In this document: positions 6,101 through 44,412 of the stretch, piece by piece
Position numbering within the stretch: position 1 is the first letter of the stretch
How the letters are laid out: the number at the start of each line of letters is the position of its first letter
DNA from: Marsupella aquatica
Taxonomy: Eukaryota > Plantae > Marchantiophyta
Assembly (NCBI GenBank): GCA_973895155.1
Contig: OZ316895.1
Coordinates: forward strand, 19,084,508-19,148,507
Direction: 5' to 3'
DNA length: 64,000 nt
Notes under the pieces: generated by a model
The model's input: only the letters and a program-made list of their open reading frames with translations
Database searches by the model: none
Told to the model about the DNA's origin: nothing
Made by a program: the position numbers and the translations under genes

Positions 6101-9100
6101 CAGGTACGTGCACTTAATGTGGAAACAGAGTTTATACCATCGATGTTACATACTCTTCCTGCTCTTCGTCCTCATGTCTTTTTGATTTTGCCAGAGTCTC
6201 ATGTTTTAGAAGGTATATAGACTCACATTGCTGAATCTGTTCTTCCCGTCTCACAAATGTGAAAAATATTCTCGTTGGACAGGCTGCCATTGTCAAGGAC
6301 CCAGCCGTTTCAGTGAATCGTACAGTATGGAGTCCCGATGGAAACTTGCTAGGTGAGAACTTTGGCAGCTGCCAACGTCTATTTTTGGAATGATCTGTAA
6401 TTTGCTGCCTGTTGGCTATCTCTCATCGCCAGCACCCCTGTCGTGATCAGGTGTTGCCTTCTCCAAATACATTGTTCACATTTATTCCTACAACGGTGGC
6501 AGTGACTTGAGACAACATTTGGAGGTACTTTTTCTATTCTCCTCGATTGTCATGACGGCCATGAAGATAGTTTCCATTGCAAAATATGAACAGGTCTACT
6601 TGACACGTTTGGCTGCCCCTTCATCTGTGGATATGCTGCCAGTGGGAATCACGGTGCTTCACAGCTCTGATCACATTGCTGGAGAGACTGATGCTCATGT
6701 TGGCAGAGTGAACGGTCAAATTCATAATTTTTTCCGTTCTGTTAAATCCCGTGTTTGTCTGATTGTTGTCGATCACTTCATGGCAGATTGATGCACATGT
6801 TGGCGGAGTGAACGATCTTGCATTTTCTCATCCCAATAAGCAACTTTGTGTTATCACTTGTGGGGATGACAAGACCATCAAGGTATGATAAAGAAGTTGG
6901 TCAGGTATGATGAATGGGTATTTAATCTAAGACTGGATCTCCCAGATGCTTCGAAGTTGCTGCTACTACTGGCTACAATGATTTTCAGGTTTGTCGATAA
7001 TTGGATGGCTTGAATTTTTTGTTTCGGTGCAACACTGAGCAGGAAGGTGTCGCGCAGGTATGGGATGCACTGACTGGGAGAAAACAGTATACTTTTGAAG
7101 GACACGAAGCACCCGTGTATTCTGTTTGTCCTCACCACAAAGAGAGCATTCAGGTATGTTTTTTGGATGTGGGCGTTTAGAATACCTTTCGGCTTAAGTT
7201 GGCACAAGTATGATAAGCGACTTATTTTGTATATTGCTCTTTGACATTTCACTTATGCTACATGGATGATTGTCGTTTCAGGAAGTTTACATGCAATAGG
7301 CAATGCATCTTATTGTACTTTTAAATCCTCACCCCGAATGTCGTTATTCTGATCCAATTTATGTCTTGTTTTGTGGCAGTTCATCTTTTCGACTGCCATT
7401 GATGGAAAGATAAAAGCTTGGTTATATGATCTTCTGGGGTCTAGGGTAGATTATGATGCTCCTGGTCACTGGTGCACGACAATGGCCTACAGTGCTGATG
7501 GGACAAGGTTGGTTCCTCGGGTAGTGTGTAGAACATGTTGTTACTAATGCTGTACATAAAATTCCACGCTCTGGAAGTCTAGAGAACATTGACTTGCAGA
7601 ACAGTTCCTCCAGAGCATTGCGTCTGGTAACTGCACAGATAATTTCTCAACCTCGGTACGTTTGTTTCAGATTGTTTTCCTGTGGGACAAGCAAGGAAGG
7701 AGAATCATATTTGGTTGAATGGAATGAAAGTGAAGGAGCAATCAAGCGTACCTATTCTGGATTTCGCAAACGTTCACTGGGTGTCGTGCAGTTCGACACA
7801 ACTAGGAACCGATTCCTGGCAGCTGGGGATGAATTTCTCATTAAATTTTGGGATATGGACATCACAAATCTTCTCACTACTATTGAGGCTGATGGCGGAC
7901 TACCAGTAAGTATTACTGCATTATTTGTAACAACAGTCGGTGGTGGAGTGGATTTGTGGGAAATTGCTCTCTTCCTTTTCAATGATAAGGATCTCTACTT
8001 CCTGGATGTACAGGAATACTAGGTTTGCTCACAATGTTAGTTTTTAGTCTAACATGAACGTTTGGGGCTCTTATCCTCAGTTTGGTATTTTGGTATCTTG
8101 TTTTTCAGGCAAGCCCACGACTTCGGTTCAACAAAGAAGGATCTCTACTAGCTGTGACATCAGCAGACAACGGGATCAAGATTCTAGCCAATGCTGAGGG
8201 AAAGCATCTTCTTCGAGCTTTCGAAAGCAGAGCATTTGAAAATCAGAGAGGACCTCCAGAACCGGCTGTCTCTAAGGTTGGTCGCATTTCTGATGAGTAT
8301 TTCGTGTGTAACTTTTTGTTTATAGATACACCCCCCCTTCTAGAGTTCCGGCGTTATCCTTATCAGGTAGTGGTTAAGAAATTTATTGATGGATTTTGCG
8401 CTCTTCAAGGGTTTACTTCAGCATAACAAAGCTACATCCGGAAATGTTTGTTATTCTGCTCCCCCTTCTAGAGTTCCGGCGTTATCCTTATCAGGTAGTG
8501 GTTAAGAAATTTATTGATGGATTTTGCGCTCTTCAAGGGTTTACTTCAGCATAACAAAGCTACATCAGGAAATGTTTGTTATTCTGCTGAAATTGCTCTT
8601 TAATTTTCAGGCACCTGGAGTCAACCCTATGGCTGCTGCTAGTGCAGCTAGTGGGCCTCCTGCTGGAGGACCTGATCGCCCGGACAGAAGTACTGCCACT
8701 GTCTCCATGGCAGGTCCTGTCATGGATGGTCCTAGCTTGATTGTTGGCCAAAATCGACCTCGTGACAGGGGTGGAAACGATCATGTACGAAAACCTGACG
8801 ACCAGCATTAGTTAATGTTAGTTAGTGTATCCTTTTTGGTTGCGCGATGGGATAAGACAAATCATCTGGATGTGCTCTTGAGGCTTTTTACCTCTCACAA
8901 GCTTGTGCATCTTTTTGTACTTGAAAGTAAAGCATTCAGTAGGAGCTTCTGAAGAAGAAGGGGCACGACGTACTTGATTTACGGAGGTCATCCCTGACTG
9001 TAAGACGGATGAGGCATAAAAGTACCTGGTTCCCAGAGTTGCCTTTTGGATGCGTGTATCGCTGAATGTGTTGCGGCGTCACATCTGTTTGTGCAGACTG

Positions 9101-11391
9101 GAATCGACAACAATCGACCACAGCAGGAACAGAAGCCCAGGGTTCAAGAAGATCTAACTGAGAGAGGCAAAAGCTGGAAATTAACTGAGATCGCTGATCC
9201 AAGTCAGTGTAGGTCTACAAGGCTACCTGACACACTACCTGCGAGCAAGGTGCGAATATTGTCACCGGAACTACTCATTCTTGAATCAGTTACGAAATCC
9301 ATTCGAATATCTTCAAATTTTGTAGCCGCAAATCCCTCCAGTTGCTGTATTGGTGAACCAACTGTGTCTGTGTACACTGCAGATCTCAAGATTGATCTAC
9401 ACCAACTCTGGAGTTGCCCTGTTGGCTCTGTGCTCGAGTGCTGTGCACAAACTATGGAAGTGGTCCCGCAATGAGCGGAATCTTACTGGCAAGGTAAGAC
9501 TTAACTCTAGAGTGAATGATATGATGAGGGCGCCTTTTGTTTTACATGCCTCCACGCAGCAATGACTTGTTAGATCAGAAAACTGACGATCATCTTGGTT
9601 GCAGGCTACTGCTACATTTCCCCCGCAATTGTGGCAACCTGCAAGCGGGATACTGATGACCAACGACATCGATAATACAAACACTAATCCTGAAGAGGCT
9701 GTCCCATGCATTGCATTATCGAAAAATGATTCCTATGTGATGTCAGCCTCAGGTGGAAAGGTGTCATTATTCAATATGATGACTTTCAAGGTATGAGTTC
9801 GCTGATGTCTAGGAAAGTATGTGTGGTGGTTGACGCCAGTCTTTGCAATCGTTGTGAGCAGTGTCTTGTATTCAAGGTAAGGACACTCTTTTTTTCAAAC
9901 TTTGTGACTAATCTTTGTTCTTTAGAAACCGTAAGGAATCCACTTAGGAGTTGACTTGACTATCGAAATCTCTTGGAGTCCAGGTTATGACGACGTTTAT
10001 GCCGCCACCTCCGGCAGCAACATTTCTGGCGTTCCATCCACAAGATAATAACATTATTGCCATTGGAATGGAAGACTCCACAATCCAAATTTATAATGTG
10101 AGAGTGGATGAGGTAAATAAGCAGAATGCTGTAAATGTCCTGGAACGAGGTATTTGCGTGTTGTCCCGATGTGATCGTTAGACGAAAAGAGGGCTGCTGC
10201 TATCAGTTAATGGGTGGGGTTCCTTCTCTAGAATTCACTTTTTTTTTGCATAATGGTCCGAGTTGCACGCAGTCTTTCAAGTCGCAACTCGGAGTGCAGG
10301 CAGTGTTGAATGGTAGTTTGAATTAAATGCCCTCCTCACCTGCAGGTCAAAAGTAAACTGAAAGGACATCAAAAGAGGATTACGGGATTAGCTTTCTCGA
10401 ATGCCTTAAATGTGCTGGTTTCTTCGGGTGCAGATGCACAGGTACATTTCAATTAACCCTGCACTTCATTTTGTAATGTCCTTTAACCTAACCTAATGTT
10501 TGTAGGAAGACTCGATAGTTTCCCGTGGGGGATGTTCCACGTAAATTTATCTCCACTTTTCTCCTGCAGCTTTGTGTTTGGGGAACAGATGGATGGGAGA
10601 AACGAAAGACAAAATTCATTCAAACCCAGCCAGGGCGGGCCCCACCGCCTATGGGTGATACTAGAGTGCAGTTCCATAACGACCAGATCCGTTTACTCGT
10701 TGTACACGAGACTCAGCTTGCTATTTATGATGCAGCAAAGCTTGAGAGAATGCGGCATGTAAGTTCTTATCCCCGAGTCACTCTCTGGCCTGCTTTGAAT
10801 CACAGATCAGTCTTGTTTAGTGTCCGGACAGTTACATTTCGAGAGTGTACATTGCCTTGATTTGTTTATCGTACGTTGTCTTACATATGACCGTGTGCTT
10901 TTGGCTGTGATAGTGGGTACCACGAGATGCCTTCTCTGCATCGATCTCCAACGCAACCTATTCTTGCGACAGCCTGTTGGTGTATGCTGGTTTTGTAGAT
11001 GGTTCAATTGGTGTTTTTGATGCAGACAGTCTGCGACCTCGCTGTCGACTGGCAGCATCAGTTCACATTCCTCCCGGCATTAGTGGCGGGTATGGGATGA
11101 CACCCTCTGTTCAATGTTGTGCCTTTTTGCATTTGACATTTGGAGATAATGTCTTTAACCTGTCCTTTTCTAATGCTGTGCAGTGCAACGGCCTATCCGC
11201 TAGTGATTGCGGCGCACCCCTCCGAACCAAATCAGTTTGCATTGGGATTAAGCGATGGAGGTGTGCAAGTCATAGAGCCGTTAGAATCAGAAGGAAAATG
11301 GGGTGTTGGGCCACCGTCAGATAATGGGGGACAATCTGGTGCAACTGGACAAACATCAGGCAACCAGGGATCTGACCAAGCACCAAGATGA
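3142..11391 (+). CDS. TPL: TOPLESS/TOPLESS-RELATED transcriptional corepressor (LisH-CTLH-CRA plus two WD40 propellers), multi-exon
   Basis: ATG at 3142 begins MSSLSRELVFLILQFLDEEKFKETVH (exon 3142-3221). Exon 2 (3325-3504) reads LEQESGFFFNMKYFE...KYLEALD. Later exons give LNWQHQLCKNPRPNPDIKTLF, MSMDFHPVQQTILL, VEWNESEGAIKRTYSGFRKRS, SASGGKVSLFNMMTFK, MTTFMPPPPAATFLAFHPQDNNIIAIGMEDS and AHPSEPNQFALGLSDGGV...QAPR*, with stop ending at 11391. Intron boundaries checked were GT-AG. Confidence 0.97.
8333..8588. repeat. 128-bp tandem duplication inside a TPL intron
   Basis: 8333-8460 and 8461-8588 are identical apart from one visible substitution (tacatccgg vs tacatcagg). Confidence 0.95.
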
Positions 11392-15939: not shown

Positions 15940-17100
15940 TATTCCAAAAACACTTCTAGAAAATTTTGTGATCACGGTGTGTTATGTCTATGGGCAGCAC
16001 AACGTTCCTGCTCCCACTCTTTCTCAGGCAACAAATGGTTTGTCATTGCAACACGATAACTACGTCCATTGTTATAACTCAATTGTGCAGTTGGAGGACC
16101 TCCAGGTTCATAGGGAGGGTCTGGATCTAAACCCCATGTTGGGTCATATACATCTACGAGGTCAATACAAATGTTATGAAAAATACATACACAAGTAATA
16201 TAGTGAGCTAGTTGATAAGGATGTGGTCAAAACATTATACGATAAACAAATCTCCAACTATTCTTCAATTGTCCAAAAGCACACCCCACGCACATCTTGG
16301 TTGAGCTAAGCATGTAGTTGGATTTGCTCTTCCGGGTATGCTCTCTTGCCCAAGGAAAAGGGTTTAACAACCAAGGATAAACAAGGTAACCAACATCACT
16401 AATAATGTACTCCCCTGTAGTGAATCCAATTGGAGCCGTAAAAGCCGGGCCCTAGAGTTTTGTGTGACGTCCCACAACATCATTATAAAAACCTGACACT
16501 CTTAGAAGGCAAGAGTCCTGAATGTTGTCAAGCCATCCTGCAAATAAATCTAAAAATTGATGTTGGCTATCACAAACAACTTGCATGGAAATGCTTTGAC
16601 CATCCCTGTAGTCACAATAATAAGTGGAATTCATCCCAAGAGGTAACTCCACCTGAAAATGAGTGGCGTCAATTGCACTACAGCAATTTGGAAATCCTTG
16701 CAATTGGCAAAACCCTTCTTTTACCTGTGCCATGGCCAACTCAAATGGTATCTCTCTTGCGCTCACAATTAATGCCTTCACAAATCGCCAAATCACATAA
16801 AAAAATACATGGGATTGAAACTCCAAACATCTCCAACAACAAGCACTCACTGGCAAATCTGTGCAGTGCTATGGCAACTTGTCTCTCAACCAACAATGTC
16901 CTGTTGGACAAATTGCGTAGGCCAGGTGGGGGTTGTGTAGTCATATCTCTTCAAACCACGTCACAAATGTACACAAACATTGCAGGCGACACCCAAAACA
17001 AATTCTTGAAGACAATTCTTGAAACTAGATAGTCTTTGATGACATGCATAAGGTACCACCCACTTCATTCTCTTGATCTTGGCTCAATAAAATTTTGAGA
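15940..17100 (-). pseudogene. PIF/Harbinger (DDE_Tnp_4/HARBI1-like) transposase remnant, frameshifted
   Basis: Fragments VERQVAIALHRFAS...EMFGVS, GFPNCCSAIDATHF and SISMQVVCDSQHQFLDLFAGWLDNIQDS are typical Harbinger HTH and DDE motifs. Boundaries are approximate. Confidence 0.85.
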
Positions 17101-19666
17101 CAAAAGGCAATGATCTCTGGAAAATTCAAGTTGAATATATAGTCTGACATAGTACAAACAAGTTTGCAAAGAGTGTACCGTCCACTTCACCCGACACCGG
17201 CCTATATTCCACAAAATAGTAGCAACAAGACCTGACCAGTGCATCTGCTACAAGATCACTTGTTGGAACACATTAGAATTGTAGAACAAATGATCTCCCA
17301 TTCCTCATTGAAAAGAACCATTTTCCAAATTGTCACGGATGAAACTACTTGCATAATGCATCAAAGAAAACAAAGATGTGAACGAGGAAAAAAAATCAGA
17401 ACATTGCAAGAGACACATAAAGAAACAAAATGAAAAAATAATATAGATAATGAGAAAAGACAAAAAGCATTTTTCTATAGGAACAAGTAATACTGCTTGA
17501 CCTCAACTTAATTATTAGATATTGCTGAAAGTCACATATGTTAGTTTGTGCCTGGGATTTTGGGGATCAATGCACACTAGACATTTTATTGACATAGACA
17601 GTGCACAAGTGAGGAGAAGATGCCAAGTCCATGGAGTAAAGACGATGTCTACTCTCTCCAAGCTCATGACAAGAGAAGCAAGCCACCCAGCAAGCCAACT
17701 CTCGCCAACTTCTTTGATAGAGCCACCAAGCTCCAAGGTGCATCCTCAAACTAGAGTGAAGCAGGATGAACTCATGCTTTCAATTATTTCTACTCGTCTA
17801 CTTAATTCTTCACTGTTTAATCTTCAGCTGTAGCTCGATTGAGATGGAGCTTTACAATTACACTGAAGAAGAGTTGATGGGAATCCTTTTGTCCTAAGTC
17901 GTCATAGAAGTAAGAAATAGACAGTGCATATTGGAAACAGGGTTGAAGTATCAACGAATTCAAAAGTGAACTTGATGACAAAATTAAGGTCAGACAAGAA
18001 CCTAATAAATCAACCACCAACAATGCCTTGTCACAAGGAATGGTGATAAATGGTGAACTTGAATTGATCATGATGTTTGATACAAGGAGGAGATATGGAT
18101 TCTTATGCAGCAAATGTCCACTGGCCTGTCCAGACTTGCTATCACTGCATATCTCATATGTCGGACTAAAAGAGAACATGGAAACTTTGTTGCAGGAAAA
18201 CGTACGTAGACGTTACCCGGTTCCAAAGATCCTAAAACCAGAGCACAAAAACTAGAAGACAAACAGAACACAGTAAGCTCTATCATGCCTAAGTGAACCG
18301 ACGTTTTGGACTTGGAGCTGGCTGTTGTCAATAGTAAAACATGTTACGCAACTCTCTGGGACTAGCGACCTTGAAAGTGGTGTGTCCTAGACACGTTTGC
18401 TATGCTCTCCCATTATAAGACACAACGATATTAGCTCACAACAACTTGGTAGGGAAGCGATTAATGAAGCAAAACTTTCAAATGTGTTTAGACTACACCT
18501 TGCCTCTAACGTAGGATATTTTGTTCCTCTCAGCGACATTTTTCTCTTGCACGACCACTTCAAATTGTTTTGTTAAACACATGAAGCTCTTGTGTTTCAA
18601 CTGTTGTGGACATTGCGATCTTGTGAAGAGTGAACAAGTGACATGCAAATTGAGCACGGGTTTGCATTACGTTCGACAATCCGTCTGTGGTCTGTTGGAA
18701 GTTTGCAGGTCCACATTTGTTGCGGCAGACACCCTGCAAACTTACCCTGCATAACCTATGATTGGGAACCGACAAAAAGGGACACAGTGCCTTGTGCAGA
18801 GTCCACATTGCAGATATTAAGATCTTCGTATGATGCATAATCTGCTTTTACCCGAGAGATTTGCTTGGTGGGACCTCCATGGAAAAGTGCCGACTAGACC
18901 AGACCCAGAAAGTCGAAAATTGCCCGGTGGGACCCCAAAAGGAGGTCTGAACGGGTTTCGCGTGTAAAACCCGGGCTGCACAGATTTCTGGCAGCTTACG
19001 TGGACGGACCCGGTAAAATTGACGATGGGACACCCCTTCAGCCTTCCAGGTCCGTAGGGAGGGCAGTCTGGCCCAGGACTTCCCATCCAGAAAGTCGGGC
19101 CCCATTGGATCCAAAATGTTAACGTTGCATTGAGAGCTGCAAGACCTTGCTCTACATTGAACCTACGATGCATGCAGACGAAGCTCTGCATTGAACCTGG
19201 GAGGGGAGGATCGAGAGTTGCAAGACGAAGCTGTGTGCTCCAAGGGGACGATCGAGGAGTGGTAAAATCTGCCAGGAGAAGATCACCCAACATTGTCAAG
19301 TTTTCAGTAATTTCACCGAAGATATCAAGACGGGGCTGTGGATGCGGTGATGGCAGCTGAATGCACAGAAGCAAAGTGACAGAACGCCGAAGCATATTGC
19401 AGGGAGAGGAGTTGGTGGTGGAAGCTGCGCTGTGGGGAGAGCGTTGTCACTGCTGTTTGTTGCGCTGCGGGTTTAGGGTACGTGACATTATGCTGCCCCA
19501 ATCATGCTAGGGAGAAGGGACTCAAAGGCAAACACCAGGCCCTATATAACGCAATGAGTCCATTTTGAGGTGCTTAGTAGCTGCGCGGTGGGGAGAGAAG
19601 CATTACCAGAACCATCCTGTACTGAAATTTTTCATTGCACACTCACATTGTCAACAAAAAAACACG

Positions 19667-22640
19667 ATGGAGGCAGAAGTTCTTGAAGAAAACCTAGCGC
19701 CCGATTGGATGAGAGGGGATGCTTACCCTATATATATTCCAGATGAGGAGAGACTTCCGTTGCCTCCAAGCAATGAGTTGCAGGGCCGTTTTGCAGCTTG
19801 GAATTCTGAGATTGAACAAGTCCATCCACTATTGAAAGGAAAGTCTGTACATGAGGTGGAAGAGGAGGCTAGTCGTATGAGGCTTGGAGAATCATTCTGT
19901 AGTTTTAATGAATTCGACCGGTGCTTGGATTCATGGAGTGTGCTGCATGGGAGAGTGAGCCATAGGTTCAAGACAAAATACAAGTTCAGAGTTAGAGTTT
20001 GTCGATTTGGAGCTGCCATTAGACCTCGTTGGAGAGGAAACAACTCAAATTCTGGTCCGGATTCTTTGTTTGGAACTGCAGGTCTCCATGAAATCCTGCA
20101 TGAAACTGAATTCAATAATTCAATAGGATCCCAGAATTCAGGCCCAGATTCTGAGATCAAAACTGTAGGTCTCCATGAAGCGGATTTCATTCATTTAGCA
20201 GGATCCCAGAATGCAAGTCCAGATTCGCAGATTGAAATTGCAGGTCTCCATGAAGTTGATTTCATTAATTTGACAGGATCCCTGGAAGATTGTGGTGACA
20301 AAGAAAATGCAGGGGAACTGCCACATAGTCCATTGCTCATCAATTCCAGAGCACCATTACAAGAAATTCACGCCAATACAATGCACCAGTCCATGGGAAC
20401 TCATAATAGCCGGAGGGAATTCGTGGCACATACTAGGGAGTGGATCCCAGCTAGTTTTCCACAGCGCCTAGCAGGAAGGGACAAGGTTCGAAGGCAATCA
20501 AAGACTGGAGCATGTGGACAGCAATGTAGGTTCTTGCCACCACAGGATAGTGATAACACTGAACTCATGCAGCCCTGCCCATTTCGAGTTAGGTGTCAAC
20601 GTGAGAAGGATGGAAAGTTTACAATCACAGTATGTGATTTGCAGCATACTTGTCCAGGATACAAGCATAAGTGGCGAGGCCCTGTCCAAAAATCTGCATG
20701 GTTGGGTGAGACGCTGGCACCTCGAGTAGTGCTAAATGTCCAAGTGCCAGTGAAGGAGATGTTAAATGGACTGAGAATGGACTACAAAAAGAGTTGCAAT
20801 TACCATCAAATGTGGAGGGCTCGAGAACTTGTGCGAGACTGGTATCTGGGTGGCCAGCGTCAAAGTTTCCTCCTAATTCCTTCATTGCTGGATAGAATGA
20901 AGGATGTTGATCCAAATTGTGTAGTTGATTGGTCTAGTGTGGAAGGCGGTCGAGTTTTTAATCGAGCATTCATATGCCCTTCTGCGACCCGCACAGCTTT
21001 GCAGTACAGTCAACCTGTGGTCTGCATTGATGCGTGCCACACCAAGAATCGAAAGTATCCGATTCAACTCTTTGTAGCTACTGCACTTGATGGGAACTCC
21101 CAAGTAAACATTCTTTGTTATGCCATTGCCCCAGTCGAGAATACTGACAACTGGACATGGTTTTTGTCATTGCTAGAGCAATCAATTCATGGAATAGCAG
21201 ACCCTACTATTCCAGTCATTTCCGATAGACAGAAGGGCCTACAAGCAGCTGTTAAAAATGTGTTCCCAACAAAGGTTCACGGCCATTGTGCCAACCATTT
21301 GAGAGCCAACTTGAGGAAACGTCATGGCAAGGGAGCAGAACGAATCTTTCTGGCTTGTGTGTATGCTAACACCAAGAGACGGTAAGGCTAGTGCATGCTT
21401 TGTACAATCCAATTTTATACTTTCAATTTGAAGAACTTACAGAGATTGGCTAAGCTTATACATTGGCACTGACATGGATTGCAGGTTTGAATTGTTGCTG
21501 AACCACTTGTCAACATCGGTTACAGACGGAGCTAATGCAGTAAAGTACATCAGAGACATGGACGAGAACTTGTATGCCAGGCATGCATTCCCCTTGCCCC
21601 GTCTTGGGAAGGTTACCAGCAACCCTGTGGAGCAAGCCAACTCAGGTTTGCTTCCCATTAGGGAGTTTGCACCTTTTAAAGTGCTAGTAGAGTTGTGGTA
21701 TTATGTCCAAACTCACTACAACAACAAGGAAGCAGCTGCAATTGCAAGACAAGAGACCTATAGCCAGCAAGCATTGAAGCGACACACAACCAACTTGCAA
21801 TCCTTTGGACAATGGCAAGTGCTAGATGATGGACAGAGTCAAGCAAAAGTTCAGACCACAGACCAACGGGAGGAGTATCTGGTCACATTATCACCAAAGC
21901 TCTCTTGCAGTTGTGTGGAGTTACAAGAAATGCTCTGGCCATGTGAACATATAATGGCTTGGTATGACAGGGATGGTAAAGACTTCACTCAGCTTTTCCA
22001 CCACTGCTGGAAGATGTCTTCTTTGCGAAAGTTGTATGAGCCAAAGGTACCTTGTTTCCTGGTTTGTGATTTGGACCCATCAGAGCACTGTCTTCCTCCT
22101 ATTCCAGCAGTGAAAAAAGGCAGGCATAGGGTGGTGCGAATTGAGAGAGGCAACAGACCATCCACAACAGAAGATCTTGCACAGGATGAGTATGTGGATG
22201 AAGAGGGGAATTTATTCCGACAATTTCCAATTCAAGAAGACAGTCAGAGGATGGCACCCATGCAAACTGCACAAACTACAGCTAGGTCTCACCAAGTTCC
22301 CACAGTAAGGCAGACACCAACTGGAACAACTAGGATGCCTCAAGTGAATCCTCATCAGTGCAAATGTTCTATTTGTGGTCAAGTGGGCCACAACAAGAGA
22401 ACTTGTCATGTGAACAGAGCAACAACAGGAACTCCACAAATACAAGTACCAGAAGACAATGGGGAAGCCTTGCATGACCATGCTCGACCGACTTCTCAGA
22501 CAGTAAACCCATCAGGTCCATTTGCATATTCAGAAAGCTCAGACAATTCATGTGAGTCTGATAATGTGGATACGTTGAACTCAGATGAAGAACCAAGTCA
22601 AGTCAGTGACATGGATCATTTCATTAGCATTGCAAAATGA
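19667..22640 (+). CDS. MURA-like Mutator transposase (MULE DDE domain, SWIM zinc finger, CCHC knuckle), 2 exons
   Basis: ATG at 19667. Intron 21382-21484 (gtaagg...gcag) restores the frame. Motifs: CPFRVRC...QHTC, VCIDACHTK, ISDRQKGL, HGHCANHLRAN, TSNPVEQAN, CSCVELQEMLWPCEH (SWIM) and CSICGQVGHNKRTC. No stops after splicing. Confidence 0.93.
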
Positions 22641-22832
22641 GATAGCAAGAGAAGCTATAGGAGCATTTGACCCACAAGATCTGTAGGAGAACTCATATTG
22701 CTGCCTGAGTTGCTGCAGCAAGTTAATGATTGTAACTGCAACCAAATTTTGACATCAAAATGAAATGCTCCAAATTTATTCCAAAATTGGCAAATTCAAA
22801 TCACATGAGAGTTGCATTTGTGTCCGATGCCT

Positions 22833-23453
22833 CTACATGTCACCATTTCCACAAAATATCTCACAGCAACACACACATCTATAAACATGATGGCCAACAT
22901 CATCTAAACCCAAGAATTCTATGTTCTGTCTGTGAAGTGAGTATGGGATGTATCCAGTGGTAGCCACCTCCCTGTCCATCCAATTCTCTGCTTGTAAGAT
23001 AGACGTAAAAGACTTGTGTTTGGCCCCACTATACCTAGTGACTTGTCTGCCAGCCTCCTCCCAAGTCTTGTATATTCCAGGAGTTCTCCCTATGGCCACT
23101 GCATACCATTTTTGCTTTGAGCTCACTCCCAGGTTACAATTATATGGTCTCTTGATTGAAGAACCTAAAAAAGCGCTAGGTTTACTGCAAGAAGTAGACA
23201 CTGAATGGGGACTCGGATCTCTGTGGAGATTCCCTTTGCCAGCTTCATTGTCCATAGGCAGGGGTCCTTCCACAACAGTCCCTAGCGATTCATGACTTGT
23301 AGAATCGAGTACAACAGGGAGTGGACGGATACGCTCCAACATGAGATGAACAAAACCAAAAATCGCACTAAGTACTCCTACAAGTGACCAGAGAAATGCA
23401 CGAGCTGCAACCCAAAATTGGTTGCCCGAATCGTGCTCTGTTGCTTTAGCCAT
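22833..23453 (-). CDS. MULE accessory ORF: N-terminal hydrophobic helix plus RNase H1 N-terminal / caulimovirus viroplasmin (Cauli_VI)-type domain
   Basis: ATG at 23453. Hydrophobic segment FWVAARAFLWSLVGVLSAIFGFVHLML. KWYAVAIGRTPGIYKTWEEAGRQVTRYSGAKHKSFTSILQAENWM fits the hybrid-binding-domain consensus (YAV..GR.PGIY..W.E...QV..Y.GA.HK.F....EA..W). The ORF lies inside the TIRs. Confidence 0.85.
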   Translation of the reverse strand: MAKATEHDSGNQFWVAARAFLWSLVGVLSAIFGFVHLMLERIRPLPVVLDSTSHESLGTVVEGPLPMDNEAGKGNLHRDPSPHSVSTSCSKPSAFLGSSIKRPYNCNLGVSSKQKWYAVAIGRTPGIYKTWEEAGRQVTRYSGAKHKSFTSILQAENWMDREVATTGYIPYSLHRQNIEFLGLDDVGHHVYRCVCCCEIFCGNGDM

Positions 23454-24537
23454 GAGCGTCCAATGCTCCCAACCAAACCTGCTATGCGTAGCCTTCCGTT
23501 TGGTGGAGGAAACCCTTTGAGTAATCAGCTTGGGACAGCAGAACGTCCGCTATCCTCCCCACAATGCAAAACAGAGCAGCACCGATCCTCTCCCACTGCA
23601 ATGCACCTCAATCGACCAACTCTTCGCCCCACAGCTAGCGCCTACGACCAAATTGTCTCCTAGCACAGCTTCGCAGCGCAGCGCAGCTTGACAGCGCAGC
23701 TTCATTGGTCTCCATGCAATCCGCTGCCCTCCCAACACGCACCTGCTGAATCAATAATAAACTCTACCTAAACCTGTAGCCAACAAAATGGAGTGCTTCG
23801 CATTTCAGACGAAGCGATGCTCTCCTCACAACAGAGCTTGGTCTCGCAGCACTTTGGCGAACAGCACAACGCAGGGCAGGTTCAATGTAGAGCAAGGGCT
23901 TGTAGCTCTCAACGCAGCGTCGACATTTTGGATGCAATGGGGCCTGATTTTCTGGATGGGAAGTCCTGGAGCTCACTGCCCATTAGCATCCCAACGGGCC
24001 TTGAAGGCCGAAGGGGGAGTTCTGCTTCCCCTTTCCCATCGTCAATTTTCCCGGGTCCCATCCACGTAAGCTGTCAGAAATCTGTGCAGCCCGGGTTTTA
24101 CACGCGAAACCCGTTCCAACTTCCTTTTGGGGTCCCACTGGGCAATTTTTGACTTTCTGGGTCTGGTCTAGTCGGCAATTTTCCATGGAGGTCCCACCAA
24201 GCAAATCTCTCGCTTTTACCCTGATTTTTGCTCAGGTTTCACATGGGTTAAGCCCCTCTCAAAGTTCCCCTGCATGCCCAAAATGCGTGTCCAGGATGTA
24301 GTTTGGGCCTTGTTTTCTGGTCGTCAGTAGTATGGAGAACCCTCCTGCAAAGTTAGAGAGTAGTCTGAACAACCCTAAACCCTCCTGCAAAGTTAGAGAC
24401 ATTGTAATATGGGAACCTTATAGAGAGACCCTAAGGTTTGTGACTTTGGCCTACAGGACTCCTATGCCTTCCTCGATGTTAGATAGGGTTGCACTAGGGC
24501 ATATGCTCGAGAGACACAAAGTTCGAGACATCCTCAC

Positions 24538-32616: not shown

Positions 32617-33127
32617 TAGCATGTAGAGTGAATATACATAAGAAAACCAATAGCATGCCATGATGTGCTGGGAGCATCTAAAGAGTCATGTAGCATGTAG
32701 AGTGAGTAGTACATAAGAAAACCAATAGCATGTCATGATGTGTTGGGAGCATCTAAAGAGTCATAGTCAATCCTCAAATGTGTAGAGAGGTGCCATGGAG
32801 TGTGCTGCCACAGTCAAGTGCTTGCAATGCTTTTAACTAAGACTCAAGAAGAACTGAAGTGAATGTGCAATGAGCAATCTAAGTATGTTGGCTCTGGAGT
32901 GCTCCTAACAAAAACTATTTGCTTCAAGAACAACCAGGGTTTGCTACAAGAACATTGCCCAAAGTGCTACTAAGAGGAGAATGCTTGCTTAGAGAACACC
33001 AAACATATCTATTATAGCTTGCATATATGGCCTCTAAACGATGAACCTAAACTACCATAATATCCTAGCGGGCGTGCACAGGGCATGGTGATGGGCGATG
33101 ATAACCATGCACTCTCGCACAACAGCT

Positions 33128-35271
33128 GTCGTGACATATAGAGTTGGTAGCATAAGATATCGAGACATGTATCATATGCATCCAAGTAACACAACAAAAT
33201 AGAAAACCAGAAAGATGATACATGGTTGTCCATTAACACCAAGATGAAGAAATGTTGGGGCATGAAAGTAAACCCCTGTATCCCCCCCCAAACCTGAGCA
33301 TGGAAATGGTCAACGGGCTGAGGATGAGCTTGGGGAAGGAGAACAAGAAGGACAGAACCATAGCCCTTCCGGAACTTGTGGAAGCTCAGGTCGCAAACAA
33401 AAGAGATGGTAACCACCGTTGCAATGGTCACACAACACCATCTGGTCAGCATCATCAATCCTGTGACACACCTTACAGGGATAATCCACCGGAGGAATCC
33501 AAGTAGAAGTCACAATGGTAGGGTCCAAGTTAGGCAAATGACAAGGGGCACAATTCTTAGCATGATCTTTGAGGGTATGACCATCTGCTCCTTGTAACTC
33601 CAACACACCTGAAGGATAGATGGACTTAACCCTGAGAATAATGCGACTGGTGGAGGTATCCAATGTGTCACTAGGCTGGCACTGAAGGTAAACAAAATCA
33701 CCCACATCAAACTGCCTCACCTTGGGCCTGAAGCTCCCTCCCCATGGGTGCGCATATTTGAGTGTATCACGATGTTGGGCAATTGTAAGGTTGTCCATAG
33801 CCATAGGCATGACTCTACGGAACAAGGCAGCCCTCTCTGATATGATAGTAGACCAGGTTTCCGTTGAGTCCAAGTCCACCACCTGAAGCATTTGAGAAGC
33901 AATAGAAGATGGAGGAACTAGATGCCGACCAAAAAGTAGAAAATAAGGAGAGAAGTTGGACGAGGCATGGTTGGACATGCGGTACCCCATGGCAATGTAA
34001 GGCAGTGCCGAGTCCCAATCTTTCTTGTTCTTGGTGAGGCATATTTTCTGCAATCCTTGTTTGCAGATCTGTACCATCCGCTCAGCTAGACCATCCGCTT
34101 GAGGATGATCCCTTGAAGTTCTATGATGATCAATGAGTGCATGGTCAAATAGGTCCTAAAATTCTCCTCTAAATTCAGAGCCCTGGTCAGTGAGACACTC
34201 TGCACCAGCCCCAAACCTGCTAAGCACTTGCTGGAGAAAAGCTTGGCTAGTGCTATGTACGTGAACTCTTATCAGGCAAGGCAACCAATTCAATCCACTT
34301 AGAAAAGTGCTCAATCATGATCATTATATAGAGGTTACCCCTGGATGTCAAAGGTAATTCTCCAGCTAAATCACAAGACCAGCGGTAAAACAATCCCTGA
34401 ATAGGGAGTGGATGAAGTATAGGCTGTCGAGAGGAGAATGAGGTTCGTACTCTGTCACACTGTTCACACCTAACTATGATATCCCGAATCTGAGCATGCA
34501 TCCCCTTCCAATGGTAGTGAGGAGCCATCAAACTATAAGTACGTTTGATTCCAAAATGCCCAAGTTCAGAATGTACTTTTTGACCAAGCCAGCCTTATCA
34601 GCAATTGGTGGAACCACTCTCTCGCCTTGTGGCAAACAGTGGACTAGGTGATCCCTTCCACACGTAACGCTTAGACCGTTGTTGTATCCAATCCCTTTGA
34701 GTAGTGGTCATGCCTGGTGGGTACTGCCTGTGCTGCAAGAAATTCAGAGTTTCCAAATCCTCCCAGATGTCCACAATGAGGTTGGTCAACAACGCTGCAA
34801 CAAAGCAAGGCAAGATAGGCAGAGGCCCCAAGTGTAGAGCTAGGACAGCATGATCAAAATCTTGCCGTGTATTTGAGAAATCTGTTGAAGTGATCAAAGG
34901 ACTGCGAGACATGGTGTCAGCATTCTGGTGAGTAATTCCAGGTCTATGAATAACTTCAAACTCATATTCTTGCAAAATGAGGGCCCAACGACCTAGCTTG
35001 CCAGTAAGCTTATCATTGGTCATCAACCACTTCAGTGGCTGGTGATCGGTAAAGAGCATGAACTTAGTGCCATACAGGTAGGGTCTGACATGTATGACAG
35101 CCCACACAACAGCCAAGCATTTGCCTTCATAAGAGGAGTAGTTGCTCTCAGCCTTGTTATTGCTCCTAGATGCATAAGCAATGACATACTCCCGCCCGTC
35201 CCCATCAGATTGACCCAGAATGGCACCAATACCTAGAGCACTCCAATCTTCTAGTACTTGATCCATCACCC
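33128..35271 (-). mobile_element. Inverted, internally deleted copy of the Ty3/gypsy element (RNase H - integrase - PHD finger - putative LTR start)
   Basis: Contains DWSALGIGAILGQ...IAYASRSNNKAESNYSSYEGKCLAVVWA (RNase H), integrase HHCC and core, and PHD CKVC...LCDHCNGGYHLFC...WFCPSC. Highly similar to the reverse complement of about 47280-49399. Confidence 0.92.
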
Positions 35272-35818
35272 TTGCCTGATAAGAGTTCACACAGCACTAG
35301 GTTCCATAGTTTCTTTGAGGACATAGTTGTCCTCTTCTGAGCAATCTCTTTTGGTTGCTCTTTTCTTTGATTGCATTGTACTTTACTTTTTGTGGCAGCT
35401 CCTTTGACTTTCATGGTCCCGGAGCTTATAATACATTACCATTACCATTACCATTACTAGCCAAGCTTTTCTCCAGCAAGTGCTTAGCAGGTTTGGGGCT
35501 TGTGTAGAGTGCCTCACTGACCAAGGCTCTGAATTCAAAGGAGAATTTCAGGACCTACTTGACCATGCTCTCATTGATCATCGTAGAACTTCAAGGGATC
35601 ATCCTCGAGCGGATGGTCTAGCTAAGCAGATGGTACAGACATGCAAACAAGGATTGCAAAAAATATGCCTCACCAAGAATAAGAAAGATTGGGACTTGGC
35701 ATTGCCTGACATTGTCATGGGGTGTTGCATGTCCAACCATGCCTCCTTGTCCAACTGCTCTCCTTATTTTCTACTTTTTGGTCGGCATCCAGTTCCTCCA
35801 TCTTTTATTGTTTCTCAA
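35271..35818 (+). mobile_element. Third fragment of the gypsy integrase (plus strand), interrupted by a LINE 3' tail
   Basis: Matches about 48256-48638 (LSRFGAC...CLTDQGSEFKGEF...). Confidence 0.85.
35301..35455 (+). mobile_element. Extremely 5'-truncated (155 bp) LINE family A insertion
   Basis: Essentially identical to the 3' end of the 44413-46165 copy, ends in (cattac)n, and is flanked by TSD actag (35296-35300 and 35456-35460). Confidence 0.9.
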
Positions 35819-35819
35819 A

Positions 35820-38800
35820 GGAAAAGAGATGCCTCTAAATGATGGGTTGGGACCTTGAGAGTCATGACATGAAATATTTCAGGACTTTCTATAGAATCAG
35901 CAATAGGAGGAGAACCCTTGTTTGAGAATGCTGACATCTTGCTCTTCATGGAGACTTGGCAATATGAGGAGAATGACCTACCTAGCATCAAGGATTTTAC
36001 TTGCATTGGATCTCTCTTCAATAAAAAGAACACCACAAGGAGAAGAGGGTTTGGAGGTATTGCAGTCTACACCAGGAACCATCTTCAACACATAACATCT
36101 ATTGAGCATGAAGATCCAAGCAAGCAATTCATGGTGGTGAGACTACATACTAGAGGTACTCCATCATTTCTAATTGTCACCTATTTTGCCCCACATAGCA
36201 TGAATGTGTACAAAATGGGAATTGCTAATGCACAATATCCATTCCATAACTTGATTCAGGTTATACATGATGTATCAGTACTAGGAGAGACATGGATAGT
36301 GGGAGACTTTAATGCTAGAGTGTCTCACCAACAATTCATTGATAGTGGAGATTTTGGGGCATTGCCTTGGATATCATGCAATGAAGACTCATCTTGGTTG
36401 AGAAAAGCTATAGATACTAGGGTAAATGATATGACACCCCATTTTCTGCAATTAGGAGCTTCTTGTAATCTGAGAATATTGAATGGGCTTGAAAGATTTC
36501 CTCATTCATCAGGTTATACATTTAGGTCAAGCCAAAGATGTAACACCATTGATTATCTCCTAGCATCACCATCTTCAGCTAGTAGAGTGATTTTAGAATA
36601 CTTGATCAACAACCAGAGTCTTCACATCTGCCCTTGTTATTTCATCTAGATTTGGCCAAAAGTTTTAGAGAAGAGATAACAAGGAAAAGATATATTCCTA
36701 GACTCTTCCTGGATCATGATAAGGCTGATGTATTTAGAGGGGAGATTGAGGCCCTACTACCAACACATTCCAATGTGTTGGAACTACCACAACTGACAGC
36801 AAAGGCAGCTACTAATGTATTCTCTAAAAGACCATTGTCCACAAAACAAACCATGAAAGCATGGTTTGATGAAGAGTAGGTAGAAGCTAGAAGGAGGGCC
36901 ATGGCACAACCTGAAGATGTAAAGTTACTTGCATTGAGAATATATAGTAACTTTGTGAAGCACAAGAAGAGATGCTTCATGAGGAAACTTCAACAAGTGC
37001 TTTCCCAAGAACTTCAAGAGAATCCTAAAGGCTTTTGGAAGAGATTTCAGGTGAAAAAAGAAGATCCTACTTGGAGCAACGAACATTGGTAAGCTATGCA
37101 AAGTCTGTCTACTTCTATTCTGAAGCTACTTCCATGCCTTTGGAGATTGGGGAAGCTATTCAATTCTCATATATAGAGGTGCAAACTCAACTATCTAGAA
37201 TGCAAAAGGGCAAGGCTGCAGATTTGCAAGGGTTCACAGTGGAGCTCCTACAATGGGGTGGATCTTCTTTGGTATCAGCATTCACTATGTGTTTGAATCA
37301 AGTGGTCCAAGGTGGCTTACCTCAAGATTGGAGTACAAGGAGATTGGTACTATTCACAAGGGAGGCTCTAAGAATGAGGTGAGCAACTATAGGACTACCA
37401 TGATAGCTAGTATCTTTGTTAAAGTTCTAGGAGGATCTAGAAGCTAGACTAGTTCTTGGGTTGAAAACACATGAAAAGAGCATCATCACAAGTTGGTTTA
37501 GGGCAGGTTTCAGTACTCTAGATCACATGCTTTGCCTTAGAGTGTTAGAGGAAGAGGGGCTAAAATACTCAAGCTACCTCTATTTTGCTTGTTTGTAGAC
37601 TCTCCAAACATTTGATCGGGTTGTAGACACAAGCTTTGGGAGAGGTTGAATAGTCTCAAAGTTCCTCTTGAGATGAGAATAGCTATTACACAATTGTATC
37701 AAAAGGTAGTGATTAGATTCTCTAGTAGTAGCTATGAGGTGGTTCCTATGAGGGATGTAAACCCCATGATGTTGTATGAAGAACAAGAGTATCTTAGAGC
37801 TCCCATTTCTATGAGGTTGAGACAAGTGATTGCTAGATATAGACTCATCTCACATCACTTGGAGGTAGAGGAGGGTAGATGGAAGGGAATTAGGAGGCAG
37901 GATAGGGTGTGTAGACTTTGTGATAGTGGCAGCATTGAGAATGAATATCATGTATTCATAGCATGTAGACGGTATGAGGAGGTTCGAATAGCACATCAAA
38001 TCCTTGTTTCTGATCTGCATGATCTATTTAGGTTGCCACCAAAGCAACTTGGATTGTATATCATGGCAGTGGATAGGAAACGATGTGATAGCATTACACA
38101 TTAGTGACTCTTAAGGTCCTTAGTTTGTTATTAGTGAGGATGTAGAGATCCTCACATGAGCATTTGACTCATTTCTTTGCTTTGTATTTGGTTTTTTTGC
38201 CACAGCTCCCTTGACTCATTGGGTCGTCGTGGAGCTTAGAATTTGACTTTGACTTTGACTCCTAGCACACTTGTGTGATCCAAGGCTGCCCACTATCTCC
38301 AATGCTCTTTGGGGTCTTCATTGACCAGCTACATGATTTGGTAGAGGAGATGGGAGGCGTAGGTTCTCAATTGGGAACACTGGCCATCCAACTTCTTATA
38401 TTTGCAGATGATGTGGTGCTTCTAGCTCACTCCCAATCTGATTTTCAACAACATCTTCTTGCCCTAGAACATTTTTGCAAACAATCAGACATGTAGGTCA
38501 ACATGAAGAAGACCAAGTGCCTTGTACTTGGTACGAAGCAAGAGCTTTCTCTCTATTTTGCAGGTGAAAAGGTGGAGATGGTGACCTCTTACAAGTATCT
38601 TGGGGTGGAGTTTTCCCAAAGCATGAGTTGGGCTGCATGTCTGACGCATAGTGTGGCTCATGGTTACAAGGCCTTCTATAGCATGGTTAAGAAGTGCAAG
38701 GGAGCAAGCCTTTCCACTTGGAAGTTGAAGAAACAACTCTTCAATTCCTTGGTAAGGCCTCTTATTTTTATAGAGTGCAAGTATGGGGCCCATCTATTTC

Positions 38801-39334
38801 TCAATCTTGTTGGAAAAAGGTAGAGGCCATCCAAAAGCTTTTCTTGGAGATGGAGCTTGGAGCTTGGAGTGAAAACCCAAATTTCTATGAAGTTGAGACA
38901 AATGATTGCTAGATATAGACTCAGCTCACATCACTTGGAGGTAGAGGAGGGTCGATGGAAGGGAATTAGGAGGCAGGATAGGGTGTGTAGACTTTATGAT
39001 AATGGTAGCATTGAGAATGAATATCATGTATTCATAGCATGTAGACGGTATGAGGAGGTTCGAGTATCACATCAAATCCTTGTTTCTGATCTGCATGATC
39101 TATTTAGGTTGCCACCAAAGCAACTTGGATTGTATATCATGGCAGTGGATAGGAAAAGATGTGATAGCATTACACATTAGTGACTCTTAGGGTCCTTAGT
39201 TTGTTATTAGTGAGGATGTAGAGATCCTCACATGAGCATTTGACTCATTTCTTTGCTTTGTATTTGGCTTTTTTGCCACAGCTCCCTTGACTCATTGGGT
39301 CGTCGTGGAGCTTAGAATTTGACTTTGACTTTGA
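35820..39334 (+). mobile_element. Degenerate RTE/RTEX-like LINE family B (APE endonuclease - RT - C-terminal zinc finger; TTTGAC tail) with a nested 3' fragment of itself
   Basis: Motifs ADILLFMETW, GFGGIAVY, IVGDFNAR and TIDYLLAS (APE); QGCPLSP and FADDVVLL (RT); CRLCDSGSIENEYHVFIAC. The nested 3' piece at about 37748-38259 has its own (tttgac)n tail. There is an internal deletion at about 38880. Confidence 0.9.
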
Positions 39335-39382
39335 TTCATTCTCAATGGTGACTTTGTGATAGTGGTAGCATTGAGAATGAAT

Positions 39383-42300
39383 CAAAAGTCAAAGTCAAAT
39401 TCTAAGCTCCACGACGACCCAATGAGTCAAGGGAGCTGTGGCAAAAAAGCCAAATACAAAGCAAAGAAATGAGTCAAATGCTCATGTGAGGATCTCTACA
39501 TCCTCACTAATAACAAACTAAGGACCCTAAGAGTCACTAATGTGTAATGCTATCACATCGTTTCTTATCCACTGCCATGATATACAGTCCAAGTTGCTTT
39601 GGTGGCAACCTAAATAGATCATGCAGATCAGAAACAAGGATTTGATGTGCTATTCGAACCTCCTCATACCGTCTACATGCTATGAATACATGATATTCAT
39701 TCTCAATGCTGCCACTATCACAAAGTCTACACACCCTATTCTGCCTCCTAATTCCCTTCCATCTACCCTCCTCTACCTCCAAGTGATGTGAGTTGAGTCT
39801 ATATCTAGCAATCACGTGTCTCAACCTCATAGAAATGGGAGCTCTAAGATACTCTTGTTCTTCATACAACATCATGGGGTTTACATCCCTCATAAAATAC
39901 TATAATCTAGGGCTAGGATCACTCCAAAGTTTTCTAATAGCTTTATCACGCAAGAGTGACCAAAGCTTCTTTGGTTGAGTATGCCATTCATGCTCAGATA
40001 AGTCCCATGATTGGGCCCAGCTACATACATCAGCATACCAACCAAAAGCTCTAGATATGTGAAAGGCTTGCGTAGGTAGCCTAGAATCATTCAACGCCTC
40101 CACTCTCCTAGCATATTGAAGAGTGTGATAGAGAGCTTCAACCTCCAATGGTAGAAGACCTACCTCAGCCAATAACAAGGGGTATGGGGTTTGGGTTTTC
40201 ACTCCAAGCTCCATCTCCAAGAAAAGCTTTTGGATGGCCTCTACCTTTTTCCAACAAGATTGAGAAGTAGAAGGGCCCCATACTTGCACCCCATAAAGAA
40301 TAACAGACCTTATCAAGGAATTGAAGAGTTGTTTCTTCAACTTCCAAGTGGAAAGGCTTGCTCCCTTGCACTTCTTAACCATGCTGTAGAAGGCCTTGTA
40401 ACCATGAGCCACCCTATGCATCACACATGTAGCCCAACTCATGCTTCGAGAAAACTCCACCCCAAGATACTTGTAAGAGGTCACCATCTCCACCTTTTCA
40501 CCTGCAAAATAGAGAGAAAGGTCTTGCTTTGTACCAAGTACAAGGCACTTGGTCTTCCTCATGTTGACCTGCATGCCTGATTGTTTGCAAAAATGCTCTA
40601 GGGCTAGAAGATGTTGTTGCAAATCAGATTGGGAGTGAGCTAGAAGCACCACATCATCTGCAAATATAAGAAGTTGGATGGCCAGTGTTCCCAACTGAGA
40701 ACCTACGCCTCCCATCTCCTCTAGCAAATCATGTAGCTAGTCAATGAAGACCCCAAAGAGCGTTGGAGATAGTGGGCAGCCTTGGATCACACCAAGTGTG
40801 CTAGGAACCTCCTCATAGCTACTACCAGAGAATCTAATCATTATCTTTTGATACAATAGTGCAATAGCTATTATCATCTCAAGAGGAACTTCGAGACTAA
40901 TCAACCGCTCCCAAAGCTTGTGTCTACAAACCCTATCAAATGCTTTGGAGAAGTCTACAAACAAGCAAAATAGAGGTAGCTTGAGTCTTTTAGCCCTCTC
41001 CTCTAACACTCTAAGGCAAAGCATGTGATCTAGAGTACTAAAACCTGCCCTAAAACCAGCTTGTGATGATGCTCTTTTCATGTGTTTTTCAACCCAAGAA
41101 CTAAGTCTAGCTTCTAGTAGTCCTCCTAAAACTTTAGCAAAGATACTAGCTATCATGATAGTCCTATAACTCACCTCATTCTTAGAGCCTCCCTTGTGAA
41201 TAGGTACCAATCTCCTTGTACTCCAATCTGGAGGTAAGCCACCTTGGACCACTTGATTCAAACATGCAGTGAGTGCTGATACCAAAGAAGATCCACCCCA
41301 TTGTAGGAGCTCCACTGTGAACCCTTGAAAATCTGCAGCCTTGCCCTTTTGCATTCTAGATAGTTGAGTTTGCACCTCTATATCTGAGAATTGAATAGCT
41401 TCCCCAATCTCCAAAGGCATGGAAGTAGCTTCGGGATAGAAGTAGACAGACTTCACATAGCTTACCAATGTTTGTTGCTCCAAGCAAGTATCTTCTTTTT
41501 TCACCTGAAATCTCTTCCAAAAGCCTTTAGGATTCTCTTGAAGTACTTGAGAAAGCACTTGTTGATGTTGCCTCATGAAGCATCTCTTCTTGTGCTTCGC
41601 AAAGTTACTATACATTCTCAATGCAAGTAACTTTACATCTTCAGGTTGTGCCATGGCCCTCCTTCTAGCTTCTACACACTCTGCATCAAACCATGCTTTC
41701 ATGGTTTGTTTTGTGGACAATGATCTTTTAGAGAATGCAGTAGTAGCTGCTTTTGCTATCAGTTGTGATAGTTCCAACACATTGGAATGTGTTGTTAATA
41801 GGGCCTCAATCTCCCCTCTAAATACATCAGCCTTATCATGATCCAGAAAGAGTCTAGAAATATGTTTTTTCCTTGTTATCCCCTCTCTAAAATTTGTGGC
41901 CAAATCTAGATGAAATAACAAGGGTAGATGTGAAAACTCTGGTTGTTGATCAAGTATTCTAAAATCAATCACTCTATTAGTTGAAGATGGTGATGCTAGG
42001 AGATAATCAATGGTGCTATATCCTTGGCTTGATCTAAATGTATAACCTGATGAATGAGGAAATCTTTCAAGCCCATATAATATTCTCAGATTACAAAAAG
42101 CTCCTAATTGTAGAAAATGGGGTGTCATATCATTTACCCTAGTATCTATAGCTTTTCTCAACCAAGATGAGTCTTCATTACATGATATCCAAGGCAATGC
42201 CCCCAAATCTCCACTTTCAATGAATTGTTGGTGAGACACTCTAGCATTAAAGTCTCCCACTATCCATGTCCCTCCTAGTACTGATACATCATGTATAACT

Positions 42301-42995: not shown

Positions 42996-43244
42996 GTCTC
43001 CTATGTCAACCATTCATTGCACGATTGGATTGAAGAAGATGAAGAGGAGTTGGCTACCACACAAGCCAATGAGAGCTTACTGTCTGCACCTACTGAGTTA
43101 GCCCCTCAACCTGAGGTTGTCCAATGGCTAAGAGCTGCCCATGGACCATTGACTATTGCTCTACAGCAATGTGAGGGCCTACAAAGCCATGGCCAGCCCA
43201 TCTTCCCAGTCTTGTGCACACTAATCACTTGGACACCTCCTCAA

Positions 43245-44200: not shown

Positions 44201-44412
44201 TATTCTTTTCCAGATGCATAATGTTCCTACTATGGGTGACCCAGCCTCTCGCCTTAATGAAGTTCTTACCTGGCACCCTGCTGAAGTACATTTACCCATC
44301 CTCTCCACTCTACATTTCACTCCTAGTGTTGGGGGGGGAGACGTACTCTGTAATGTGACTGAAATTTCAAAATCAGAGCATGGCATGGACCAGATCACAC
44401 CAGGCAAAGAGG

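Follow-up and report, generated by a model that had tools for sequence, protein, structure and literature searches.

Two long-standing questions about Mutator transposons are what their second genes do and how they choose sites near genes for insertion. In the maize transposon MuDR, the second gene, mudrB, is convergent with the transposase gene mudrA. To our knowledge, its product MURB has no recognisable domain, and neither an RNase H1 hybrid-binding domain (HBD) nor a Cys/His module. MURB binds the N-terminus (residues 1-209) of the transposase MURA, and this has been tied to integration (PMC12973397). Here, a stretch of 64,000 nucleotides from the liverwort Marsupella aquatica (contig OZ316895.1, positions 19,084,508 to 19,148,507; the window) is described, which contains a Mutator-like element (MULE) with a second open reading frame, ORF2. 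We conclude that a complete MULE carries ORF2 as a genuine and conserved accessory gene, and that the architecture of ORF2, an HBD within a Cys/His bracket behind an N-terminal helix, appears to be undescribed.

The HBD of ORF2 belongs to PF01693 (Cauli_VI), a family on record for a few transposon proteins. It was tabulated in accessory proteins of 1/1846 active MULE, 3/775 CACTA, and 1/217 Harbinger clusters, and in 3/217 Harbinger transposases (PMC12973397 Table S6). Cauli_VI appears in the supplement of that paper and is absent from the main text, and no function is given. The capE gene of a Pleurotus Helitron also carries PF01693, which is mentioned in passing without a function (PMC4289320). 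The literature search, which did not extend to subscription journals, repeat databases, or the supplements of bioRxiv preprints, found no paper on the function of PF01693 in transposons and no description of the ORF2 architecture.

A second gene in a complete Mutator element

Window positions 18854-24211 (5358 bp) are a complete Mutator element. The terminal inverted repeats (TIRs) are 85% alike overall, with 15% of positions differing, and 92% alike over the outer 166 bp. The 10-bp target-site duplication falls within the range of 8-11 bp given for MULEs (PMC6446971). Contigs from four public DNA sequencing runs (X1-X4) were used to check the element, and contig depth was not taken as copy number. 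Alternative flanks start exactly at 24211 in two contigs of X1 and six of X3, and exactly at 18854 in one contig of X2. An empty site is seen in one contig each of X3 and X4, which link 18853 to 24225 without the element and have four letters at the joint where the window has three. Since both termini have alternative flanks and an empty site exists, the ends are correct and the element family has moved in the past. Long TIRs, a target-site duplication, and an open transposase with a DDE triad and CxxH are the marks of an autonomous MULE, and the element is apparently autonomous with an intact transposase. A contig in X3 and X4 omits 2113 nt of the transposase (window 20649-22763) and rejoins in the spacer before the 3' end of ORF2. 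It is likely a deletion derivative without the transposase core, and it may retain ORF2.

ORF2 lies inside the TIRs and is convergent with the transposase gene, with 192 nt between the two stop codons. An initial annotation of the locus had described an intact frame of 206 aa in the mudrB position, and this is confirmed. The interval from the right TIR to the start of ORF2 (window 23454-23900, minus strand) contains three upstream ATGs, which open frames of 11, 26, and 51 aa.

Sister copies of ORF2 were found in X1, where eight contigs match window 22700-23560 at a minimum of 80% identity; the pieces were listed with the exception of one. Two sister contigs lose similarity at 22834 and 22835, that is, at the ORF2 stop codon, and another loses it at 23453, the ORF2 ATG. 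The contig that ends at the ATG has 98 nt in place of the 113 nt of the linker, and its frame is intact. A fourth contig extends into the 3' spacer, which holds all 8 listed indels, with none in ORF2. A p value of 4e-6 for this indel distribution was set aside, as gaps that cluster in a diverged spacer cannot be counted as independent events. In X1 and X2, a joint at 22634-22758 connects the end of a sister transposase with a sister copy of ORF2 at about 89% identity. In X1, this joint and the spacer-reading contig, whose match starts at 22758, have equal depth (23.1), so the sister ORF2 is likewise convergent with a diverged sister transposase end. These observations bear out the view that ORF2 is an accessory gene of the element, as it is retained in sister copies with its similarity bounded by start and stop codons.

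Selection below neutrality (dN/dS<1) had also been proposed as a check. Of 85 variant places 40 were listed, 33 of them within ORF2, and none creates a stop. Codons with a single change comprise 11 synonymous and 12 non-synonymous cases (pN/pS 0.31, p 0.006 in a naive test). After a base-specific correction, 13/33 changes are synonymous compared to 8.8 expected (p 0.059). The naive test thus agrees with dN/dS<1 and the corrected one falls short of significance, which makes the result suggestive only. Conservation at the protein level is stronger evidence for a kept gene than the substitution test. We consider it very probable that ORF2 is a selected accessory gene.

Domain architecture of ORF2 and its relatives

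The PF01693 match covers 44/44 profile positions and scores 64.5 bits against a curated cut-off of 21. No other Pfam family was found in ORF2 at E up to 0.1. The RNase H catalytic domain (PF00075) is absent from ORF2 and from all 19 members of alignment A3 in Pfam searches, and a crude motif for the catalytic site was found in 0/29 family members. An RNase H1 N-terminal-type domain without a catalytic domain, as first annotated, is therefore what ORF2 carries. In the PDB, the sequence matches the yeast HBD 1qhk (8e-7) and the human HBD 3bsu (4e-4); HIV protease rows (E 0.09-0.6) were dismissed as chance. An AlphaFold2 model of residues 94-206, built from 19 sequences with a mean pLDDT of 78.7, superposes on 3bsu with a root-mean-square deviation (rmsd) of 0.6-0.9 Å over 45-47 columns. 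Foldseek E-values against HBD structures were 0.003 or weaker, and VIA-align gave nothing at Z of at least 5, the top structure being the yeast HBD with Z 4.4. In an Atlas search with the whole protein, the top rows were basidiomycete PF01693 proteins (0.86-0.89), which serve as a lead only.

A phmmer search over 1.84 billion proteins gave 2236 matches, and relatives were drawn from the best 150. An alignment of 18 rows was made from matches that extend past the HBD and two cluster mates; two rows are near-copies of others. The 17 relatives of ORF2 are 31-44% identical in the full alignment and share a common layout. The PYNC-HBD-Cys/His core is retained in all 17, and the helix also in most. 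Of 17 family or near-family proteins, 16 come from Logan and one from ENA. Word-based homologue searches gave one and four matches, every one of which is also in the phmmer set. Several relatives look decayed. At conserved positions, 22/43 departures in the relatives fit a single C>T or G>A change, compared to 6/51 in RNase H controls (p 4e-5 against 53 controls, the residue make-up differing between the sets), and 10/10 Cys losses are to Tyr. Because these departures match the pattern of methylated repeat copies, the relatives are likely transposon-borne too. In a tree of the HBD (47 columns, quick method), 28/29 family rows fall in one branch of 36 with an SH-aLRT of 90; the tree names no donor for the ORF2 domain. 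A metagenome scan gave 13 loci, all of which match the HBD only and have no transposase at them. An unrelated hit, protein P0086, combines an Snf7 domain with three or more HBD repeats and may be a gene-calling artefact.

Residues that contact nucleic acid in the human enzyme were traced in ORF2. Human W43, F58, K59, and K60 align with W131, H146, K147, and S148, and human Y29 aligns with Y117. In human RNase H1, hybrid binding is lost in the W43A mutant and drops about tenfold with K59A or K60A (PMC6846478). Y117 is conserved in 17/18 rows, W131 in 15/18, and K147 in 12/18. ORF2 itself has K147 and R140, and the equivalent of R52 is Arg in 5/18 relatives only. At the K59-K60 sites of RNase H controls, KS is the commonest pair (22/53, vs 14 for KK); since Ser at the K60 site is also commonest there, nucleic-acid binding by ORF2 is likely. 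Binding of RNA:DNA hybrids or double-stranded RNA (dsRNA), which had been read from the domain, is a fair prediction: the equivalents of W43 and K59 are present, and that of K60 is Ser. From these residues, ORF2 probably binds at least one of the two.

The Cys/His module at the C-terminus follows the pattern H174-R...G.D..G-H188...C193.C195-C196..IF-C201.N. Its residues are well conserved (H174 18/18, H188 17/17, C193 14/17, C195 16/17, C196 13/17, C201 15/16), and together with the PYNC motif, seven Cys/His positions bracketing the HBD are retained in 76-100% of rows. Because these positions are conserved, the bracket is predicted to bind zinc, likely with enough residues for one or two ions. 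The module has no Pfam match, and an Atlas search with residues 160-206 gave no usable hit. Fold searches of the model were filled by HBD matches, the module having always been modelled together with the HBD. Four further proteins have the helix and the HBD and no Cys/His module. The PYNC motif and the C-terminal module are an addition to the earlier description of ORF2.

The initial annotation had called the N-terminal helix a membrane anchor. Its hydrophobicity stands: residues 19-39 have a Kyte-Doolittle 21-mer mean of 2.07, and the best 19-mer has no charge and a hydropathy of 2.05. The anchor function fares less well. The best 19-mers of 12 proteins score between 1.09 and 2.38, with at least 1.6 in 7/12; the five helices below 1.6 score 1.09-1.44 with two to three charged residues, and 10/12 proteins have charged residues in their most hydrophobic helix window. 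Recurrent residues within the helix are W, S, F, H, and E. The helix is conserved, and a packing helix suits it as well as a membrane anchor does; a true anchor in ORF2 is rather unlikely. The linker between helix and PYNC has low model confidence and variable length.

Coordinates of the element and its features in the window
Feature	Position in window	Strand	Basis or remark
Left target-site duplication, 10 bp (GCTTTTACCC)	18844..18853	.	Exact direct repeat
Left TIR, 311 bp	18854..19164	+	85% alike right TIR
Mutator transposase exon 1, D455, D520, CxxH 541-544	19667..21381	+	Pfam MULE (PF10551) 8e-15, Transposase_mut 7e-11
Predicted intron, 103 nt, GT..AG	21382..21484	+	Excision yields a single open frame of 956 aa
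Transposase exon 2, E621, SWIM finger, C-terminal motif	21485..22640	+	SWIM E 0.002, below curated cut-off
ORF2, 206-aa accessory protein (P0001)	22833..23453	-	Open, ATG to TAG
ORF2 C-terminal Cys/His module, residues 174-203, predicted three-strand meander	22845..22934	-	Conservation and AlphaFold2
ORF2 HBD (RNase H1 type), residues 115-158	22980..23111	-	PF01693, E 1e-17
ORF2 PYNC motif, residues 103-106, first part of predicted zinc module	23136..23147	-	C106 in 16/17 rows with a residue
ORF2 N-terminal helix, residues 9-41, hydrophobic to amphipathic, pattern W..L...S..F.F.H...E	23331..23429	-	AlphaFold2, block pLDDT 92-97
Right TIR, 334 bp	23878..24211	-	Loose contig ends at 24211
Right target-site duplication, 10 bp	24212..24221	.	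Exact direct repeat

Candidate functions of ORF2

Our preferred reading, with a probability of roughly 40%, is that ORF2 is a MURB-like accessory protein, likely hybrid-binding, which tethers the transposase to R-loops at insertion. In this model, the HBD, braced by the zinc module, would clasp an R-loop, and the N-terminal helix would bind a partner or another ORF2 molecule. The transposase would thereby be brought to its target at the insertion step. An R-loop at the integration site is a speculative target, and the helix may be a self- or partner-binding element. Action at target capture or integration has somewhat less than an even chance. The presence of PF01693 in MULE, CACTA, Harbinger, and Helitron proteins suggests repeated recruitment. 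A wider reading, in which several DNA-transposon superfamilies independently recruited the HBD as an R-loop reader and a zinc-braced adaptor here steers a Mutator transposase to hybrids, is unlikely; if true, a eukaryotic cut-and-paste element would be selecting its targets under the guidance of RNA structure. A comparison of the ORF2 and transposase profiles found no relation between them, and co-folding of transposase residues 55-572 with ORF2 residues 10-206 scored 0.00 twice (no alignments were used, and the fold of the partner is uncertain).

Several points weigh against tethering to R-loops. The K60 equivalent is Ser in ORF2 and Lys in just 4/18 rows, and the K59 equivalent is Glu in 5/18 relatives, so some relatives may not bind nucleic acid. 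The distant relatives are known as proteins alone, and linkage to a transposase was not observed for them. The substitution test, based on fewer than half of the variant places, is marginal after base correction, and the ORF2 helix is hydrophobic enough for membrane insertion. Finally, the single MULE cluster among those tabulated indicates that most autonomous MULEs need no such gene (PMC12973397).

The main rival, itself doubtful, is that ORF2 covers dsRNA or RNA:DNA hybrids from the element itself (convergent transcripts, long TIRs, or scaffold RNAs of RNA-directed DNA methylation) and shields it from silencing. The fold of the HBD accommodates both hybrids and dsRNA, and the two closely spaced convergent genes and TIRs of more than 300 bp could yield dsRNA. 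The coding parts of the element are CpG-poor (observed/expected 0.20-0.44 vs 0.49 for the window), and the element was therefore likely methylated in the past. Against this reading, the HBD is not known to be sequence-specific. The noncoding parts contain a short repeat of 5/18 bp in two to three copies and no 9-mer more than four times, whereas VANC arrays are dense. The initial annotation had drawn on two analogies here, and neither is supported. Anti-silencing proteins of MULEs do exist in the form of VANC (PMC5735166), but its domains DUF1985 and DUF287 were not found in ORF2 by Pfam. In cauliflower mosaic virus (CaMV) P6, suppression needs domain D-I, which lies outside the RNase H region, and a deletion in miniTAV, a part that overlaps with that region, kept local suppression (PMC3836500). 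Broad anti-silencing is also called rare in plants (PMC12973397).

It is improbable that the HBD fold now serves the zinc module in a structural or protein-binding role, which would make ORF2 an adaptor with no affinity for nucleic acid. The Lys to Glu exchange at the K59 equivalent and the scarcity of Arg at the R52 equivalent (each in 5/18 relatives) would fit such a role, as would the flanking His, which are better conserved than the basic face. However, the aromatic residues Y117 and W131 are retained in most relatives, and the ORF2 copy itself retains K147 and R140.

Quite improbable, too, is a membrane-bound cytoplasmic RNA handler, in which the helix would be an anchor and the HBD would hold element RNA or the ribosome, raising transposase translation or moving RNA. 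Its appeal lies in the uncharged 19-mer of ORF2, the 7/12 helices of at least 1.6, and the resemblance of the HBD fold to ribosomal L9 (title of 1qhk). The miniTAV region of P6 serves translation (PMC3836500). However, the other 5/12 helices are less hydrophobic and charged, the conserved S, H, and E on the 33-residue helix look like a packing face, and a cut-and-paste element works in the nucleus.

The very improbable and largely refuted reading of ORF2 as a functionless passenger, whether a piece of host RNase H1 captured in the manner of a Pack-MULE or some other host gene, could draw on the corrected substitution test and the decayed relatives, but similarity between sisters stops at the start and stop codons, the catalytic motif is absent from all family members, conservation reaches far beyond the HBD in proteins that are less than 45% identical, and no listed X1 piece (eight contigs, at least 80%) is confined to the HBD. 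Within this scope, the view that ORF2 does not closely copy a host RNase H1 gene is supported. Pack-MULE status was likewise rejected for the element, which has an intact transposase and, among the listed pieces, no such HBD-only donor.

The wider locus and comparison with known systems

Excision of the predicted intron opens the transposase frame, and annotated Calypogeia relatives extend past this point. Among six matches, three Calypogeia fissa proteins are 54-64% identical to the transposase. The DDE triad (D455, D520, E621) was placed by known motifs; the N-terminal region is presumably a split WRKY/GCM1-type domain, and we take the C-terminal motif to be zinc-knuckle-like. The N-terminal region contains a 75-bp in-frame repeat in 2.5 copies (window 20048-20282). 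This stretch is very variable among relatives and is flanked by two conserved blocks.

A host gene starts 977 bp to the right of the element (window 25189 onward). Its first exon has no Pfam hit; by its motifs, we take it to resemble a DNA primase large subunit. A single insertion close to the start of a gene is no evidence for targeting. About 2 kb to the left of the element lies a broken remnant of a PIF/Harbinger-type transposase (window 16455-16868, minus strand; DDE_Tnp_4 6e-7). Two related retrotransposon copies in opposite orientation (33015-35296, minus strand, and 43482-49214, plus strand) both end in a PHD finger. The latter copy has a remnant of a C-5 cytosine methylase upstream of the reverse transcriptase (Pfam 1e-5); methylase-bearing retrotransposons are known. 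Pieces of long interspersed nuclear elements are nested in these copies, which results in long inverted repeats across 33122-49404. Ordinary land-plant host genes include a TOPLESS-type gene (3842-11321, plus strand) and a pentatricopeptide repeat frame of 926 aa (56882-59659, minus strand).

With a solved domain structure and known binding residues, ORF2 provides a testable handle on MULE second genes through a single mutant, W131A. If the R-loop reading is true, transcription would be linked to target choice, and ORF2 may be a possible targeting part. If ORF2 blocks silencing instead, it would be a plant transposon counter-defence of a kind distinct from VANC.

Compared to caulimovirus P6/TAV, ORF2 has the same HBD fold, and P6 also starts with a short helix (PMC3836500). 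Only the domain of about 50 residues aligns well with ORF2, whereas P6 has about 520 aa. VANC, from Arabidopsis VANDAL MULEs, is a MULE accessory protein like ORF2. Its domains are DUF1985 and DUF287, and the DNA motifs that it binds are short and arranged in tandem (PMC5735166), whereas neither these domains nor dense motif arrays were found in the ORF2 element. The Cauli_VI proteins of other transposons have the same domain as ORF2, as compared by domain name and not by sequence. The element resembles maize MuDR in its long TIRs, a duplication within 8-11 bp, a DDE transposase with a SWIM finger, and a second ORF (PMC6446971). Binding to the transposase was shown for MURB (PMC12973397), whereas for ORF2 it is a proposal only. 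By description, ORF2 is set apart from MURB by its HBD and Cys/His module. RNase H1 (3BSU, 1QHK) is similar in the full-length domain, with an rmsd below 1 Å and equivalents of W43 and K59 in ORF2. ORF2 differs from it in that the catalytic domain is absent, His and Ser take the places of F58 and K60, and the HBD sits within a Cys/His bracket.
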